Origin: Fibrobacterales bacterium | GTDB lineage: Bacteria; Fibrobacterota; Fibrobacteria; Fibrobacterales; JAOPTW01 | NCBI GenBank assembly: GCA_051532055.1 | Contig: JAOPTX010000014.1 | Span: forward strand, 1 to 56,788 | Direction: 5' to 3' | Length of the DNA stretch: 56,788 nt | In this document: positions 29,144 to 36,015 of the stretch, one piece after another | Numbering within the stretch: position 1 is the first letter of the stretch | Layout of the letters: each line of letters starts with the position of its first letter | Program-made: the position numbers and the translations under genes | Notes under the pieces: generated by a model | Told to the model about the DNA's origin: nothing | Seen by the model: the letters and a program-made list of their open reading frames with translations, nothing else | Databases searched by the model: none

Positions 29144-30502
29144 ATGAAACAAATAAAAGGCGCCATGCTGGTTTTAATCACATGGTCAATTACAGGCTGC
29201 TTTGGAACAGCAACCAATAATAATAACGGATCGGAAAATCATTCATCGAGCTCAATTATGAGTTCAGCCGAAAGTTCATACACCCCAAATTCATCAAATT
29301 ATGAGTCTTCATCAGAATCATCAAGCGAAAGCTCTAGTATCGAGGAGTCTTCTTCAAATGAAGAGAGCTCAATGACTGAAGGACTCTCAACACCTGAAAC
29401 GTCATCAGCCAATCCTGAAAGCTCACACGAGTCTTCTTCGAGCGTCGCTGAGTCTTCATCTTCTATTTCATCTTCAATGCTCTCTTCCTCATCATCCTCA
29501 TCTTCTTTTGTGATATCATCATCATCAGAACCAGAAATTCTGTATGGACCAGTAGGAAGCCCAGTGGCAAAATTCGGCTTCTTAAAGTCGAGTGGAAAAA
29601 CTATCACGAGTGTTAAAACAGGCGAAGCTATTCAACTCATTGGAATGAGCATGTTTTGGAGCCAATGGACTGAACAAGACAACGGAGGATCACCCTCATT
29701 TTACACTACAGAGGTGGTAAACTGGCTGGTAAGCGATTGGAAAATCGACATTATACGTGCCGCCATTGGAATACATGACGACCAAGCAGCCGGAGCTGAT
29801 TATCGCGCCGATCCTGAAAAGCACTGGGGTTACCTTGAAACGATTGTGAACGCAGCCATTGACAATGGTATCTATGTAATAATTGATTGGCACTCACATA
29901 CAGCACATCATCAGACTAATGATGCTAAGGCGTTCTTTAAAAAGGCTGCTGAAACATGGGGGGATTCACCCAACATTATCTATGAAGTATATAATGAACC
30001 AGAGCAAGTTGGCTGGGGTGAAATCAAAGAGTACATGAATGAAACCATTGCAGAAATCAGAAAATACGATACACAAAATCATATAGCAGTTGGAAATCCA
30101 ATGTGGTCTTCATATCCTGGCGATCCTGCTGGGGACCCTCCTACTGACCCAAGTGACAACATTTCGTACACCATGCACTTTTATGCGCAAGCGCACAAGG
30201 GCGAATATAGAGATAGGGCTGACATAGCACTCAATGCAAACAAACCAGTCTTTGCTACCGAATGGGGTTCAAGCGGACCGGTTGAACAAACCTATGTTGA
30301 TGTAGCAAGTACAAATGAGTGGCTTGATTACATGAAGACGAATAAAATTAGTTGGTGTAACTGGTCGATCTATGACAAAGCCGAAGCGAACTCATCACTT
30401 AACCCTGGCGCAAACACAGCTGGCGGTTGGGGCGATGGAGAACTTACTGAATCAGGTAAACTTCTGAGAAATTATATTAGAGAGAACAACAACTGGGACT
30501 AA
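29144..30502 (+). CDS. GH5 (subfamily 2-like) endoglucanase lipoprotein with Ser-rich linker
   Basis: Lipobox ITGC; GMSMFWSQW, YVIIDWHSH, YEVYNEP (acid/base), HFYA, FATEWG (nucleophile), SWCNWS. Confidence 0.93.
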   Translation: MKQIKGAMLVLITWSITGCFGTATNNNNGSENHSSSSIMSSAESSYTPNSSNYESSSESSSESSSIEESSSNEESSMTEGLSTPETSSANPESSHESSSSVAESSSSISSSMLSSSSSSSSFVISSSSEPEILYGPVGSPVAKFGFLKSSGKTITSVKTGEAIQLIGMSMFWSQWTEQDNGGSPSFYTTEVVNWLVSDWKIDIIRAAIGIHDDQAAGADYRADPEKHWGYLETIVNAAIDNGIYVIIDWHSHTAHHQTNDAKAFFKKAAETWGDSPNIIYEVYNEPEQVGWGEIKEYMNETIAEIRKYDTQNHIAVGNPMWSSYPGDPAGDPPTDPSDNISYTMHFYAQAHKGEYRDRADIALNANKPVFATEWGSSGPVEQTYVDVASTNEWLDYMKTNKISWCNWSIYDKAEANSSLNPGANTAGGWGDGELTESGKLLRNYIRENNNWD

Positions 30503-30542
30503 GGTCCTCAAGGTTTATTACAAACTCATTATTTAGATAATT

Positions 30543-30579
30543 TACAGAGTTCTTTCCATCCGTTGGAAAGAACTCTGTA
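30543..30579. terminator. Perfect 16-bp hairpin between convergent genes
   Basis: TACAGAGTTCTTTCCA-TCCGT-TGGAAAGAACTCTGTA. Confidence 0.75.
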
Positions 30580-30741
30580 GTTCACAGAAATTATACGAAA
30601 CATAAAACACAACCTCTCCATGCAACATACGTCAGTATCTTAATTTGAAAAGTTTAATCCAGATCATTTTGAAAAGGAAACCAACTTCTTATTTAAAACC
30701 CCGAACAATCTAATAATTTGATCTTCTTAACAAACAAATAA

Positions 30742-31779
30742 TTACTCAACAATCATCCGATCCCAACAATCAAAACCAAGATCCAACATCAGCTCTTTCG
30801 TAACATCAACAAACACAACAGCAGTAGTATCAGCTTCAGTTATCACTCTACCGTTAGAATAAAAAACCCCATTCTCTTCGGTACAACAGTTCTTCACATA
30901 TTCATAATCAAATTCAAGTAAATCAAATGAATACTTTTGAGCATCAACGCCAGCATCCAATTCATTGGATGTTCTTTTTTCAAAGGTAAAACCAAAAGCA
31001 TTGCCATAGCCAATATAGCTTTCTGGTGCTGATCCCTCACCATATTCAACAGCGATATAATAGGTACCGTCTATTGATTCAGAAACTGTTTTTACCCCTA
31101 CTGACTCCGACGGGATATCGTATCCAGGCAAAAGGGTACAGTGATTCACCAATGGCAACATATCTACATCTCCATTAAACCGAGCCTCCATACCGTCATA
31201 CACAATCGTTGTTGAGCTATCACTATCGCGTGTAAGATGTATCTCTGGTGAATGTACTATTGATTGACTTGGAGGAAGTTCAGGAAAGAGAACGGAATAA
31301 ATACCATCCCCTTCACTAGCTAAGGACACATCATAAAAATAGGCCCCGCTCACAGATCCATCATTCACCTTAATGCGTTTTTCTCGAAGGGAATAAAAAC
31401 CAAGAGACTCAACAACATACTGATTATTACCCGGTGTCAATGATATATGTCGATAGAGGGACCCCATCGAATTGTCCATAGTCATAATATCATAATCCCC
31501 ATAGGGGAGATTCTCAAAGGTAAAGTCACCCGCACTATCTATAGTTGTTGTAGCAAACTTCTCTTGAGGTGTATCTACTTCATACAACCAAAGCTCTAAA
31601 CCGGTCCTAGCTTTTACACTTTTAAAGGCGATAGGTGATAGTACTTCTGCTACAGGATTATCAATAGAAGTACTGCCACTAATACGTCCACTTCCATCAA
31701 TATCTTCTGAAGCAATACTACACCCTATCACAATCAAGGACCACAAAGGAACAAGTACTCGTATGCCAAGACGAATCAC
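30742..31779 (-). CDS. Lipoprotein with N-terminal carboxypeptidase-regulatory-like (Cna-B/transthyretin-like) domain
   Basis: Lipobox VIGC; TTTIDSAGDFTFENLPYGDYDI; 4-nt GTGA overlap with the TIGR02147 gene. Confidence 0.75.
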   Translation of the reverse strand: MIRLGIRVLVPLWSLIVIGCSIASEDIDGSGRISGSTSIDNPVAEVLSPIAFKSVKARTGLELWLYEVDTPQEKFATTTIDSAGDFTFENLPYGDYDIMTMDNSMGSLYRHISLTPGNNQYVVESLGFYSLREKRIKVNDGSVSGAYFYDVSLASEGDGIYSVLFPELPPSQSIVHSPEIHLTRDSDSSTTIVYDGMEARFNGDVDMLPLVNHCTLLPGYDIPSESVGVKTVSESIDGTYYIAVEYGEGSAPESYIGYGNAFGFTFEKRTSNELDAGVDAQKYSFDLLEFDYEYVKNCCTEENGVFYSNGRVITEADTTAVVFVDVTKELMLDLGFDCWDRMIVE

Positions 31780-32621
31780 ACAGACCCCTTCTGTTTTTCA
31801 ACTGAGTTCGCCAAAGGAAAATACTGCATATTACACTGACACACGGTTTCAATTACCTCAGTACGATTCAGAATAGTGTCAATTTTTTCACGGCACTCCT
31901 TAAGGGCCGCATCAATTTCTCGATAAGACTCGTGAGAAACACCAGCTGTTATCGTCACAATATACCGTTCATCAGGTGTGAATGCGTGGAGCGCTCGCTC
32001 CCCCATCCCAATCATCTTTTTAATATGATTACTCACCGCCTGGCTCACATGATTATTATCCGTACGGAGTCGACAGTTCGTTTGACGATAGGTTCCTTCT
32101 TCTCCGTTTTCCTCTATCAAGTGCAGCTTTAATAATAATTTTACCGAACTCTGTACATCTCTCACAGAAATAGGAGGAGAGAGCATCTTACCCAGTTTAT
32201 GAAAATCTCCTGAAAAACCCTCACTACACAACATCTCCCGTATGACCGGATGATACCACTGACTAAAGTAGTTATAGGTATCTAACTCCAAGGTGAATAC
32301 ATCGGGATTTATGAGTTGCTCAATAGATCGCATTATGGTATCGATCTCTTTTTCATCTTTAATGTGCTTGAGCTGAACGAGAAGCTTAAAATAGCGCTCT
32401 TCACTCTCTTTTTGAGTGACCAATGGGGCTATTTTACCATACGAACCTACTGAAAGAGTTTTTTTACCAGTAAACACCTTGTGGACATACCCTTTAGAAC
32501 TTATTCCCGCTTTTTGGGCAAGTCGTTGATAGGATATTCGACGATCACTCGTTTTGGCATCTTTTATCCAATCGGATAAAAAGGTTTGATAATCCAGATA
32601 ATTAAAAATCGATACTCTCAT
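31776..32621 (-). CDS. TIGR02147 / DUF4423 family protein (N-terminal HTH)
   Basis: IFNYLDYQTFL...SYQRLAQKAGISSKGY...G.K.LS; YFSQWYHPVIRE; LLLKLHLIE; ER...T.GVS; C-terminal QCNMQYFPL; 281 aa. Confidence 0.88.
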   Translation of the reverse strand: MRVSIFNYLDYQTFLSDWIKDAKTSDRRISYQRLAQKAGISSKGYVHKVFTGKKTLSVGSYGKIAPLVTQKESEERYFKLLVQLKHIKDEKEIDTIMRSIEQLINPDVFTLELDTYNYFSQWYHPVIREMLCSEGFSGDFHKLGKMLSPPISVRDVQSSVKLLLKLHLIEENGEEGTYRQTNCRLRTDNNHVSQAVSNHIKKMIGMGERALHAFTPDERYIVTITAGVSHESYREIDAALKECREKIDTILNRTEVIETVCQCNMQYFPLANSVEKQKGSV

Positions 32622-32659
32622 ACCAAAAAGTTAGCAATCAGGTCAATAAGAATAAATGG

Positions 32660-32745
32660 TGGTATACAAATATCACCAATTAAACCCTATTTTATGCCTT
32701 TATTGGTATACGAATTGCCCAAAATTTTTAAATATTGGTATACGA
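32660..32745. promoter_or_regulatory. Three direct copies of a TGGTATAC motif upstream of the TIGR02147 gene
   Basis: TGGTATACAA at 32660; TATTGGTATACGA at 32701 and at 32733. Confidence 0.7.
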
Positions 32746-32760
32746 CTTTACATTCCATCT

Positions 32761-32785
32761 AAAAAAGGGGCACACCAAGTACCCC
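32761..32785 (-). terminator. Intrinsic terminator after the DUF6345-like/partner operon
   Basis: Minus strand GGGGTAC-TTGGT-GTGCCCC-TTTTTT. Confidence 0.7.
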
Positions 32786-32808
32786 CTATTCTGTATATTT
32801 TTCGCCCT

Positions 32809-33771
32809 TTACCTCTTTAGTCGAGCCCTAATATCATAGTGCTTTACTCTACTTTTCTTCCCATCTTTTCGCTGAGCTCGAGCAGGGAGTTGTACATGAT
32901 AGGAATAACTGGGCTCAAGGGAGGTCGTTCCATCATAATTATTTTTAACAGGAAGCCAACTAAGCGCTATCCCTTCTACCTTACTATTAGCCACTTGCTC
33001 TATATCTGACCCAAGATCTTCAGTCAACACCCCCTGAAGCTCTAACAAACCCTCATTAAGAGTTTTTAATTGATAGTGACCTGTGGAAGAAAACTGAGGC
33101 CACCGTACCTTTATCTCTTCAAGTTCACCATATTTATTAAACCAAACTTCGACAAATGAAAGGTTGAGCCGCACTATTCCCCCATTATGTACTCTCCGAA
33201 AACGCACTCCATACCGTATAATTTCTTCCTTCTCTACTGAAAGCTGCGAGCCATCAATAGGGAGCTCAGACACGGTTTCTTGTGCAAGAGTTTCAAACTC
33301 CAGTTCTCCAGCTAAAGCCACAAGCTGTGTATTGAGTATTTTTTGTGCATCCTTTTGAGCTTTTTTAGAATTGTAGGATTTGACACGGTTTTTTCTTTTT
33401 TGTTTTGGTAAAAAGCGAAACATTTTTGAGCGAGCATCATAATCAACATGTAGAGCTCGATATTTTACTCCTTGTGCGAGTAGACGCGTCATTGACGCTT
33501 TATTAAGAGGATATTCTGCACGATAGCCCGAAACCACGCTACCCCTCCACGAAGTAACACTCGGTGCTTTTGATTTCCCCTTTCCGAATGCCTGATAGCT
33601 ACTTGTGGCACGTTGAGTATAAGACTGCACTTCCTGGCCTGTTTTCAAACCTGAACGAAACTGCTCCCCTCCCTTTTTATAAAAATTGACAACAAATGCC
33701 TCACTCTCTGGAGACAATTGCTGAGCTGAAAGAGAAATAATAACGGTCAATAAAAGAATTAATAATTTCAT
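32809..33771 (-). CDS. Secreted basic protein with FTP/PepSY (YcdB/YcdC-like) propeptide-type fold
   Basis: Signal peptide; YGVRFRRVHNG..V....VEVWFNKYGEL....W and IALSW...LEPSYSY resemble propeptide-like partner domains; Lys/Arg-rich. Confidence 0.6.
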   Translation of the reverse strand: MKLLILLLTVIISLSAQQLSPESEAFVVNFYKKGGEQFRSGLKTGQEVQSYTQRATSSYQAFGKGKSKAPSVTSWRGSVVSGYRAEYPLNKASMTRLLAQGVKYRALHVDYDARSKMFRFLPKQKRKNRVKSYNSKKAQKDAQKILNTQLVALAGELEFETLAQETVSELPIDGSQLSVEKEEIIRYGVRFRRVHNGGIVRLNLSFVEVWFNKYGELEEIKVRWPQFSSTGHYQLKTLNEGLLELQGVLTEDLGSDIEQVANSKVEGIALSWLPVKNNYDGTTSLEPSYSYHVQLPARAQRKDGKKSRVKHYDIRARLKR

Positions 33772-33782
33772 AGCAATACTCC

Positions 33783-34613
33783 TTAATAAGTTGGGGTTCC
33801 ATAAACCACTGTGTTCCGCGCAATAAACTGACGTGCAGCTCCCACAGCTCTACCATTGTATACATTTGCGAACGTCTCTTCTGCTCCATTAAAAGGCACA
33901 CCATCTGCTGTCCCCTTTACATAAACCACTTTAATCTCTTGTGACAACCCGATATCTTGATACAGCTCAGAATAGATGGCTGATTTGTAGGCCTCCCACA
34001 TAGTCTTCCCTTGAACTATCCATTGATAACTCCACTCATCCCATTTTTCGTATGAATAATTGCCATTTTTATAGCCACTCTGCACAGAAGAACTATACCC
34101 AAAGATTGCGTGTAATCCATCAAACACCGGAAGCAAGTTATTCAACGTATACCGGAGAGAATATGACGCATCATAAAAAAGCCATTTAGTATAACTGCCC
34201 CCATATTCCTTATCAGTTGGAGCGACTATCCCCCCATCATAACAGATAGGACCAAGAGCAAGCTTACCCCCATCATATGATCCATTAGGATCGATTTTAT
34301 TGTGACCAGAAAAAAACACAAACTCTGAATTATTTGATGTCGTCCCGGTCATAAAGCTTTTAGTGACCGCCGCATCTTTATACTTATGGGTCGATTGATT
34401 GCTTCTTACCGATACTCCCGCAGCAGATGCACGGGTCTTTAAGTTATCAACAAATGCATCGGCATTTTCGTGGCTATATGGCAAAGAAAGATGCCCAACT
34501 TGCCGATACGATTCTACGGAAAAAGAGGTGATCCAAGCGTACTGAAGAGTACCCCATCCTCCAGCACAAATAATAGTGGTAAAACTCAATACCAGAAACA
34601 ATATTTTCATCAT
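33783..34613 (-). CDS. Secreted DUF6345-like (clan CD caspase-fold) protein, catalytic Cys replaced by Ser
   Basis: Signal peptide; FVFFSGH, G...KWLFYDAS, FDGLHAIFGY, W..G.T.WEAY pattern recognised as DUF6345-like. Confidence 0.7.
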   Translation of the reverse strand: MMKILFLVLSFTTIICAGGWGTLQYAWITSFSVESYRQVGHLSLPYSHENADAFVDNLKTRASAAGVSVRSNQSTHKYKDAAVTKSFMTGTTSNNSEFVFFSGHNKIDPNGSYDGGKLALGPICYDGGIVAPTDKEYGGSYTKWLFYDASYSLRYTLNNLLPVFDGLHAIFGYSSSVQSGYKNGNYSYEKWDEWSYQWIVQGKTMWEAYKSAIYSELYQDIGLSQEIKVVYVKGTADGVPFNGAEETFANVYNGRAVGAARQFIARNTVVYGTPTY

Positions 34614-34788
34614 ACTATGGTCCTTTTTGAAGGTGAATTGACTGATTTAAAACTTGACCCTCTCTCAAGTTCTGGCCAAAAGTATAGTCATTACTCTTTT
34701 ATATTACAGATCAATTAGAAGGAAACGAATATTCGCTTAAAAATTAATTTTTTACTAACTAATGGGTCAGCCCCCTCTAAACACCAAC

Positions 34789-34898
34789 TCGTATGACAAT
34801 TTGGTATACGAATATTTAACACATAGTTTTTATAAGCGTTAGTATCAGTATAATTATATGTCAATAAGAACGCATCAAAAATTATCATTTGGTATACA
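34789..34898. promoter_or_regulatory. TTGGTATAC motif copies upstream of the DUF6345-like operon
   Basis: Imperfect 23-bp palindrome TCGTATGACAATTTGGTATACGA (34789-34811) and TTTGGTATACA (34888-34898). Confidence 0.7.
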
Positions 34899-34943
34899 CT
34901 ACCATACATAGCACTGCTTAAACTTTACTATTCAGAATGGGAC

Positions 34944-34973
34944 AAAAAAAACTCATTTACAATAAATGAGTTT
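34944..34973 (-). terminator. Terminator after the solute-binding protein gene
   Basis: AAACTCATTTA-CAA-TAAATGAGTTT with a T tract on the minus strand; AT-rich, weak. Confidence 0.55.
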
Positions 34974-35034
34974 AATAGATATCTCTCAAAAAAGTAATAG
35001 TTCCACAAATCTCTTTCCAGATTTGCCAAATCCT

Positions 35035-36015
35035 CTATTTAAGTAACTTGCGTGTAAATCCTTTAAACTTTTCTTTATATGAGGCCGCTTCAATAAAGTC
35101 GATATACATGATACTTAAATCATCTACAAGGGGAAGATAGTCAGGGCGATCGACACTTCCTCTCAATGGAATCAGTGCTCCGTTACCATACGCAAGAGAC
35201 GATTCTGTCTCATCCGTGAGTAGGTAGTCTATAAATGAAACCCCATTGTCTCTATTAGGCGCATCGGCAATGAGAGCAACCGTGTGAGGAATTAAAATGG
35301 TCCCCATCCCTTTATCAGGGAAGATCACATCGAGTGCACTATTCTTTTGCATTGCCCTATGGGCATCACTCATGTCAGTTATACCGACTGGTACGGTACC
35401 CGCAGCAACAAGGTCACCCACGCTATTACCCTTTTGTGTAAATACAAATTTAGTCTCGAGCATTGTTTCGAGCAACTGCTCAGTTTTACGTTTTCCAATC
35501 ACAGCACAGAGGCCAGTCATATGCAACAAGCTATTGCCCGAAATGGGTTTTTCAACAGCAACCTTACCCAACCATATATCTCCAGTAAGCTCATACACAG
35601 ACCGAGGAACAAGTGATTCATCAACTAAGCTTTTATTAAAAAGAATGACACGAGATTGGGCACTAAAAGCCGTCCAATAGCCAAGACTATCTTTATACTG
35701 TTCGGGATATTCATTAAATGATTGAGATTTATAGGACTCAAGAACCCCTTCAATTCTAAGGTCGATTGTCCCTGCAACTGATGCATTCCAAAAGATATCC
35801 GCCTTACCCTCTCCCTTTTCGGCAAGTAGTTTATCATGAATATCATCTGCCCCATATTGAGGCTGTACAACAATTCCTGTTTTTTCGGTAAATGTATTAA
35901 AGAGTGGTTCAGCTACTGCCTTATCTACAGTGGTATAGACAACTACTTCACCTGCGCTACACCCAATAAAAAGGGCAATACAACATACTAATCCGGTAAC
36001 AATCAACTTTCTCAT
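35035..36015 (-). CDS. ABC transporter substrate-binding lipoprotein, Fe3+/AfuA-FbpA-like
   Basis: Lipobox FIGC; VVVYT...FTEKTGI.V, ADIFW, LESYKS, D..GYW, IFPD.G.GT...P..VAL, FIDYLL. Confidence 0.85.
   Translation of the reverse strand: MRKLIVTGLVCCIALFIGCSAGEVVVYTTVDKAVAEPLFNTFTEKTGIVVQPQYGADDIHDKLLAEKGEGKADIFWNASVAGTIDLRIEGVLESYKSQSFNEYPEQYKDSLGYWTAFSAQSRVILFNKSLVDESLVPRSVYELTGDIWLGKVAVEKPISGNSLLHMTGLCAVIGKRKTEQLLETMLETKFVFTQKGNSVGDLVAAGTVPVGITDMSDAHRAMQKNSALDVIFPDKGMGTILIPHTVALIADAPNRDNGVSFIDYLLTDETESSLAYGNGALIPLRGSVDRPDYLPLVDDLSIMYIDFIEAASYKEKFKGFTRKLLK

Follow-up and report, generated by a model that had tools for sequence, protein, structure and literature searches.

Among described regulators, lambda cI, the 434 and P22 c2 repressors, and C.AhdI come closest to the system presented here, with an XRE-type fold at the N-terminus. 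The operators of a second group, the GntR/FadR family (UxuR/ExuR-type), follow the pattern t-GT-n-AC-a. This report concerns a 56,788-nucleotide (nt) stretch of DNA from a Fibrobacterales bacterium (contig JAOPTX010000014.1 of assembly GCA_051532055.1), referred to as the window, and within it a four-gene module at positions 30,742 to 34,898 that encodes a regulator of the TIGR02147/DUF4423 family, a lipoprotein, a DUF6345-like secreted protein and a secreted partner of 320 amino acids. Five copies of a short word, YGTATACCA, lie in the two intergenic regions of this module. These boxes are interpreted as the putative operator of the locally encoded TIGR02147 protein, which would thus be a local, dimeric regulator that controls its own gene through a private operator; the probability of this interpretation is put at about 65%. 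The genome (G000; contigs C30, C31 and so on) comprises 5,173,524 base pairs (bp), or 5.17 Mb, and is 94.4% complete. Of the 40 relatives searched, G001 is the sole congeneric genome with an ortholog of the regulator.

The likeness to lambda cI, the 434 and P22 c2 repressors, and C.AhdI consists of the XRE N-terminal fold, several operators before the regulator's own gene, and a predicted dimer. For lambda cI it may extend to one box centred about 43 nt upstream of a possibly leaderless start; at OR2, cI has the same position relative to the leaderless PRM mRNA. In contrast to XRE/cI-type proteins, the regulator is predicted to have a winged helix and a different dimerization part after its helix-turn-helix (HTH), and its boxes are 9 to 12 nt long, in one orientation and 32 to 88 nt apart, rather than adjacent palindromes of 14 to 18 bp. 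A phage or restriction-modification context is absent, a lipoprotein gene is coupled to the regulator gene, and the family has 50 paralogs in this one genome. The box core TGGTATAC(C/G)A resembles the GntR/FadR pattern t-GT-n-AC-a, and the putative winged helix of the regulator could read such a site. However, the regulator lacks a GntR domain, none was found in the genome, and CGTAGCCTAA, the box of its closest paralog, lacks the pattern. The match to TIGR02147 ("Fsuc_second") and DUF4423 (PF14394) is full-length; what is proposed here in addition is an operator, a dimer and a pair of DNA-binding-type domains. Clan CD peptidases (CHAT, C11 clostripain-like peptidases, metacaspases) are matched by the fold of the DUF6345-like protein, whose catalytic Cys is replaced by Ser. 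Full-text literature searches found no functional study of TIGR02147/DUF4423 or of DUF6345; in these searches DUF4423 turned up only in a Bdellovibrio proteome table (PMC12546842).

The box reads YGTATACCA in gene orientation (TGGTATACR on the plus strand), and its five copies share one orientation:

32660 to 32668, minus strand: box A, which reads TGTATACCA in gene orientation; it starts 47 nt before the regulator ATG and is centred about 43 nt before it.
32704 to 32712, minus strand: box B, CGTATACCA, starting at -91.
32736 to 32744, minus strand: box C, CGTATACCA, starting at -123.
34802 to 34810, minus strand: box D, CGTATACCA; distance to the downstream DUF6345-like ATG, about 190 nt.
34890 to 34898, minus strand: box E, TGTATACCA; distance to the downstream DUF6345-like ATG, about 280 nt.

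The initial annotation had described five motif copies in the two spacers (at 32660, 32704 and 32736, and two more that lie at 34802 and 34890) with spacings of 44 and 32 bp before the regulator gene, and both descriptions hold; the full set of spacings is 44, 32 and 88 nt. The longer word TTGGTATACGA occurs exactly at 32703, 32735 and 34801. Similarity between boxes ends at 12 to 13 nt, and the flanks are unrelated. The core TGGTATAC is found seven times in the window, always on the plus strand (15856, 25357, 32660, 32704, 32736, 34802 and 34890), against a shuffle mean of 1.61; one shuffle in 100 reaches seven. Across the genome the core is not over-represented (251 seen, Markov expectation 263), and three copies within 300 nt occur at this locus only. 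The genome contains 93 copies of YGTATACCA, and 18 of these lie outside any open reading frame (ORF) of at least 110 amino acids, in DNA that makes up 12.7% of the genome. Five of these 18 are at this locus. The other 13 are single copies at about chance level. The word is therefore no frequent element upstream of genes, and the possibility that it recurs upstream of unrelated genes, raised at the outset as a ground for refutation, is contradicted by the genome-wide count. In the two spacers (608 nt together) 93 x 608/5,173,524, or about 0.011 copies, are expected; five are observed.

Two further elements proposed in the initial annotation were dropped. One was another shared element, GTCAATAAGAA, which contains TTGAC on the gene strand and does stand at both 32642 and 34860; G001 does not keep it, however, and a place at -25 to -20 from the ATG is not that of a -35. 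The inverted degenerate copy said to form a 23-bp palindrome by 34801 (box D) is likewise absent in G001. A single CGTATACCA in inverse orientation lies at C106:3101, upstream of another TIGR02147 paralog and beside that paralog's TTGTACTCA repeats; it may reflect cross-talk or chance.

An ortholog of the regulator was found among the 40 relatives in G001 only, where the protein is 93% identical. The DNA of the locus is about 76% identical between the two genomes. The four genes are neighbours in G001 too, with different genes on either side, and each of the five boxes is retained, at spacings of 43, 32 and 93 nt. The spacer before the DUF6345-like gene has largely diverged, yet GTATACCA is retained at both places, corresponding to boxes D and E. 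Conservation rests on one congener because wider searches added none: ortholog scans of genome contigs yielded G001 only, those of metagenomes yielded none, and a search for homologous proteins returned only two relatives each for the regulator and the DUF6345-like protein.

The module consists of four minus-strand genes in two units, separated by an intrinsic terminator:

33783 to 34613, minus strand: DUF6345-like gene; 276 amino acids, signal peptide, caspase fold; PF19872 (DUF6345) at 1.3e-6 and 28.5 bits against 26.9.
32809 to 33771, minus strand: gene of the 320-amino-acid secreted protein; signal peptide, no family match; partner of the DUF6345-like gene.
32765 to 32787, minus strand: intrinsic terminator of the operon formed by these two genes; kept in G001.
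31776 to 32621, minus strand: TIGR02147/DUF4423 regulator gene; 281 amino acids, XRE-type HTH, putative winged helix and predicted dimerizing C-terminal part.
30742 to 31779, minus strand: lipoprotein gene; 345 amino acids, GTG start, signal peptide, lipobox VIGC, then a tag-like segment ISGSTSIDNPVAE.

The gene identities first assigned, the terminator between the units (32787 to 32765 on the minus strand) and the coupling of regulator and lipoprotein are all upheld. The regulator matches TIGR02147 over residues 3 to 272 (4.4e-65, 219.8 bits against a cut-off of 50) and PF14394 (DUF4423) at 1.4e-25 (90.4 bits against a cut-off of 30), and its stop codon overlaps the GTG start of the lipoprotein gene by 4 nt. 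In the lipoprotein, MIRLGIRVLVPLWSLIVIGC fits the lipobox pattern by pattern match, and a weak CarboxypepD_reg-like beta-sandwich is present (PF13620 at 3.7e-6, below cut-off); its ortholog in G001 is 55% identical.

The structure of the regulator was modelled with AlphaFold2 (AF2) from a 120-sequence alignment, with a predicted local distance difference test score (pLDDT) of 91.2. Residues 8 to 91 form an XRE-type HTH, as indicated by Foldseek probabilities of 0.96 to 0.98 to C.AhdI, HigA and SinR over about 70 residues, with E-values of only 0.3 to 0.5, and by VIA-align Z scores of 6.5 to 8.2 to 3pxp, HigA, DdrO, P22 c2 and lambda cI; Pfam HTH_3 gave no match in the protein at E <= 0.01. Residues from about 105 to 212 align with winged helices of the MarR/ArsR/HxlR type at Z 6.3 to 7.7, a range that the tool calls common, and a sequence-family match for this part is absent. 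A homodimer through residues from about 197 to 274 is predicted with a score of 0.72, against 0.00 for the best of three controls; at least 93% of contacts agree between runs, and the pLDDT of the partner is at least 81. Of the benchmark proteins, 20 of the 30 solved as pairs and 1 of the 23 solved as single chains reached the mark for a homodimer, counts that hold only roughly here since the alignment was custom-made. Family searches found no DNA-binding protein in the module besides the TIGR02147 protein. The entropy of the two candidate DNA-reading helices across 47 paralogs does not show which of them sets specificity. A peptide-sensing regulator of the RRNPP type (AimR, PlcR, Rgg) was considered and rejected: the match to AimR covers the HTH only and is sub-threshold (23 bits against 70), and the model consists of a winged helix and a dimerizing part without a helical (TPR-like) repeat array.

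The closest paralog of the regulator, on contig C30, belongs to a module of four genes that correspond, in type and order, to those described above. Relative to the present locus, identities are 51% for the regulator, 58% for the DUF6345-like protein, 34% for the partner and 31% for the lipoprotein. Upstream of the C30 regulator, CGTAGCCTA, containing the box CGTAGCCTAA, starts at -121 and -90; at the present locus CGTATACCA starts at -123 and -91. The co-variation of box and regulator sought by the initial annotation is thus seen in this pair, whose boxes agree in position but differ in sequence. Two related regulators behind related but distinct boxes in the same layout would represent a natural specificity swap. 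Genome-wide, CGTAGCCTAA has nine exact copies and one copy with a single mismatch, arranged exclusively in five direct-repeat pairs; the spacing is 31 nt in every pair, and the sequences between the partners are unrelated:

C30, 41493 to 41534 and 43630 to 43671 (L044, 994 to 1034 and 3131 to 3171): two pairs.
C31, 57995 to 58036: one pair.
C39, 16699 to 16740: one pair.
C42, 53193 to 53234: one pair.

Two of the pairs flank the C30 paralog's own operon and the other three are those on C31, C39 and C42; one of the two flanking pairs precedes a LuxR/GerE-type gene. Taken together, the pairs look like a small regulon of the C30 paralog.

The TIGR02147/DUF4423 family is large: a library search gave 5430 representative sequences, and DUF4423 has 50 matches in this genome and 4 to 49 in each of the relatives. 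The regulator repertoire of the genome is unusual in that no PF00392 (GntR) gene was detected, yet 50 TIGR02147 paralogs are present. Forty-seven of the 50 paralogs could be parsed, those without a parsable start being C22, C58:9227 and C47:92234. In 38 of the 47 an ORF of at least 200 amino acids lies within -44 to +15 nt of the stop codon, and all 38 of these downstream ORFs have an N-terminal hydrophobic stretch ending in Cys and a common GG.TE..N.IAG-like segment; a 4-nt overlap occurs in 16 of the 47, and the strict lipobox pattern in 22. The distant relative G039 shows the pairing in 11 of 14 loci parsed. Because the pairing is family-wide, the lipoprotein is a regular partner of the family and not peculiar to this locus. 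The role of sensor first suggested for it is unsupported, since the pairing is a family-wide cassette and nothing points to sensing. In these lipoproteins the GG.TE..N.IAG-like segment follows the lipobox Cys and is itself followed by the CarboxypepD_reg-like beta-sandwich; the segment could be a sorting or surface-export tag.

Local repeats upstream of other paralogs were also looked for, as the initial annotation had advised, and they are present. Thirty-six of the 47 paralogs entered this test of 200 nt of upstream DNA, those left out having short upstream DNA or less than 150 nt of non-ORF DNA. Direct repeats of at least 10 nt occur in 9 of the 36 paralogs against 61 of 1456 control ORFs (about 6-fold, p = 2e-5), and those of at least 11 nt in 7 of 36 against 28 of 1456. 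Three other paralogs have boxes that G001 also retains: GTGCAC in four copies, TGTACACCAATTAA with TCACCAAATTG, and TTGTACACT. The most enriched upstream words are TTCGTA (11 of 45 paralogs against 83 of 1611) and AATTCGT (8 of 45 against 34 of 1611), whose p-values survive correction only narrowly; both overlap the left part of the box at this locus. A second shared element was noted: AATGTAAA(T/G)TCGTA recurs upstream of several unrelated paralogs (for example on C36, on C57 and at 32745 to 32758 of the window), and ATGTAAA is enriched upstream of paralogs (14 of 45 against 173 of 1611).

Two candidate promoter elements are placed relative to the boxes:

32628 to 32636, minus strand: putative extended -10-like element TGCTAACTT, whose hexamer ends 6 nt before the regulator ATG; TGTTAAGTT is at the same place in G001.
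34681 to 34686, minus strand: -10-like TATACT, 68 to 73 nt upstream of the DUF6345-like ATG, the putative promoter of the DUF6345-like operon.

A Shine-Dalgarno sequence is absent before the regulator ATG. Since this ATG stands just after TGCTAACTT, the regulator mRNA may be leaderless, and if TGCTAACTT is an extended -10, box A may be centred near -43. TATACT is common to all four module copies (TATAAT in one), as is an A/T-rich block near -140. A conserved hairpin in the DUF6345 leader folds no better than shuffles (z = -0.29), and a scan for sigma-70-type promoters found nothing at the boxes.

If the boxes are the operator of the local TIGR02147 protein, the regulator would act as a homodimer joined through its C-terminal part, each subunit carrying an XRE-type HTH and a winged helix. 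Such dimers would sit on boxes C, B and A before the regulator's own gene; because these boxes are 32 and 44 nt apart, or about three and four helical turns, bound dimers would line up along the same side of the helix, which would permit cooperative binding. Box A would abut the -35 region of the promoter of a probably leaderless regulator mRNA, resembling lambda cI at OR2/PRM. The regulator would set the level of its own bicistron, which comprises the regulator and the translationally coupled lipoprotein. Boxes D and E would extend its influence to the adjacent operon of the secreted caspase-fold pseudo-peptidase and its 320-amino-acid partner. The sign of regulation is a guess; activation of the regulator gene from box A is favoured, and the distal boxes perhaps aid cooperativity or looping.

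Several observations weigh against this interpretation. Before the regulator gene the spacer matches that of G001 at 87% identity along its whole length, and for this reason the conservation of boxes A to C says little; only boxes D and E lie in diverged DNA. These two boxes are about 120 and about 210 nt upstream of TATACT, far for a simple activator or repressor. With 50 paralogs in the genome, the binder could be a non-local one. A symmetric dimer fits the near-palindrome TTSGTATACSAA and fits the asymmetric CGTAGCCTAA less well. Pairs of YGTA followed by five identical nt, a statistic framed after inspection of the data and of mixed replication, speak for the interpretation in this genome (upstream of 5 of 45 paralogs, shuffle mean 0.65) and in G039 (6 of 27, shuffle mean 0.23), values reached in none of 200 shuffles, and against it in G029, G002 and G004, where they are found upstream of 0 of 23 paralogs; the loci parsed were 27 of 30 in G039 and 23 of 30 in the other three genomes together. 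In the C30 module an exact box is missing in front of the DUF6345-like gene, two copies with two mismatches each lying further upstream, and 12 other DUF6345-like loci in the order, outside this genus, have no TIGR02147 neighbour. For these last two reasons, control of the DUF6345 operon is plausible solely in this module and forms the weakest link of the proposed mechanism.

The boxes might instead be bound by a regulator encoded elsewhere, either a GntR/FadR/UxuR-type dimer or another TIGR02147 paralog, with the local gene merely a target. This is unlikely. The TGGTATACCA-like near-palindrome at the core does have the GT..AC form of GntR-family sites, 50 paralogs are available as binders, and TIGR02147 regulators can act away from home because the C30 box occurs at five promoters. 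On the other hand, the boxes travel with the four-gene module in G001 despite differing flanking genes, and the C30 paralog owns a different box at the same positions. The GntR version of this alternative, put forward in the initial annotation, is weakened further, since no PF00392 match was obtained in G000 (94.4% complete) by a search whose control was positive in 12 of 14 genomes.

It is quite improbable that the repeated word is a promoter element, whether the -10 of an extracytoplasmic function (ECF)-type sigma factor or a sigma-54 -24/-12 site on the plus strand. CGTATA resembles the -10 of some ECF promoters, box B read on the plus strand (TGGTATACGAATTGC) is like the sigma-54 pattern TGGCAC-N5-TTGC, and TGTAAA-type words are enriched upstream of paralogs, as noted above for ATGTAAA. 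However, TTGC follows box B only and is lost in G001, no AAC-type -35 lies 16 to 17 nt upstream of boxes C, B, A or E, and three to five tandem promoters at spacings of 32 to 88 nt, two of them 190 to 280 nt from the gene, would be odd. Both sigma-factor readings were rejected as fitting single boxes only and as not conserved. The idea that the boxes are a chance or neutral repeat left by local duplication, without function, draws on the 4.2% of control ORFs that have upstream direct repeats of at least 10 nt. It is the least probable of the explanations considered, given that the similarity is confined to 12 to 13 nt between unrelated flanks, that five copies in one orientation stand against about 0.01 expected, that boxes are kept in diverged G001 DNA, and that the C30 module has the same layout. 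By comparison of genomes and paralogs, the word is locus-specific and conserved and fits an operator of the local TIGR02147 protein best, and this part of the regulatory interpretation first proposed is kept; the sensor and the propeptide that accompanied it, and an active protease, are not supported.

The structural model of the DUF6345-like protein has a middling pLDDT of 77 and a predicted template-modelling score (pTM) of 0.81. Compared with the PDB by Foldseek, it matches SAVED-CHAT (8tl0) at E 8.6e-6 with a probability of 1.00, and the C11 peptidases 6n9j and 6nag, metacaspase 7qp1 and caspases with probabilities of 0.9 to 0.99. Distant DUF6345-like proteins carry GHG and DAC motifs in an 18-sequence alignment. 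In the local protein the His is kept and the catalytic Cys position is Ser (FYDASYS); because of this replacement it is probably a pseudo-peptidase. The G001 ortholog has Arg and Ser at the His and Cys positions, and C30-type copies have Leu with Ala or Pro. The copies compared, with His/Ser, Arg/Ser, Leu/Ala and Leu/Pro among their residue pairs at these positions, are:

Window, 33783 to 34613: the DUF6345-like gene of this locus.
L043, 4967 to 5797: DUF6345-like copy.
L044, 4145 to 5053: DUF6345-like copy.
L045, 4190 to 5020: DUF6345-like copy.

This pattern suggests that the DUF6345-like proteins of this genus are a pseudo-enzyme lineage in which the GHG/DAC residues were lost in different ways; the caspase fold would have been kept and peptidase activity probably lost. 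Of the caspase-fold effector originally envisaged, the fold is supported by the match to 8tl0, and an active protease is unsupported, given the Ser here and the Arg that replaces the His in the ortholog. The 320-amino-acid partner has a 34% identical paralog on C30, and similar partners lie beside DUF6345-like genes elsewhere. Profile searches gave it no recognizable family and the ESM Atlas no named relative; the label "propeptide" is unsupported, since no family matched.

The module is flanked by a gene for a glycoside hydrolase family 5 (GH5) cellulase at 29144 to 30502 on the plus strand, convergent with the lipoprotein gene, and by a solute-binding-protein gene at 35035 to 36015 on the minus strand, whose terminator is at 34949 to 34973. 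Neither flank is kept in G001. An Rfam scan of 30400 to 35200 gave zero matches at E <= 1. Metatranscriptome contigs from a sample that is possibly the source of the DNA cover parts of all four genes and 34772 to 34970, the latter spanning the spacer that contains boxes D and E and part of the terminator of the upstream gene; 32145 to 32784 and 34528 to 34771 are uncovered. Depth is low, DNA carry-over is possible and the contigs lack ends and strand, and therefore nothing is concluded from them.

Compared with what is in print, the locus would add a local autoregulator of the XRE type whose two-domain build is unusual and whose partner is a lipoprotein. A broader view of the family, tentative and on present evidence doubtful, is that TIGR02147 proteins are two-headed dimeric regulators (XRE HTH and winged helix) with private, fast-evolving operator words, each translationally coupled to one surface lipoprotein. 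Some 50 such switches might operate in parallel in this genome, cross-wired by shared boxes into an undescribed network that chooses the surface lipoproteins and secreted proteins displayed; the idea of cross-wiring is based on the C30 box, which is also placed upstream of a LuxR-type regulator gene and of three further loci. TIGR02147/DUF4423 is among the largest paralogous families in Fibrobacterales, with no function assigned, and this locus supplies a defined candidate site of 9 to 12 nt. Together with its C30 twin it offers a candidate binder and two distinct sites, a basis for reading the recognition code. If the proposed regulation is true, the secreted caspase-fold DUF6345 family would have been recruited, catalytically dead, under a TIGR02147 regulator, and the locus would show how the many lipoprotein cassettes of these polymer-degrading bacteria are controlled.

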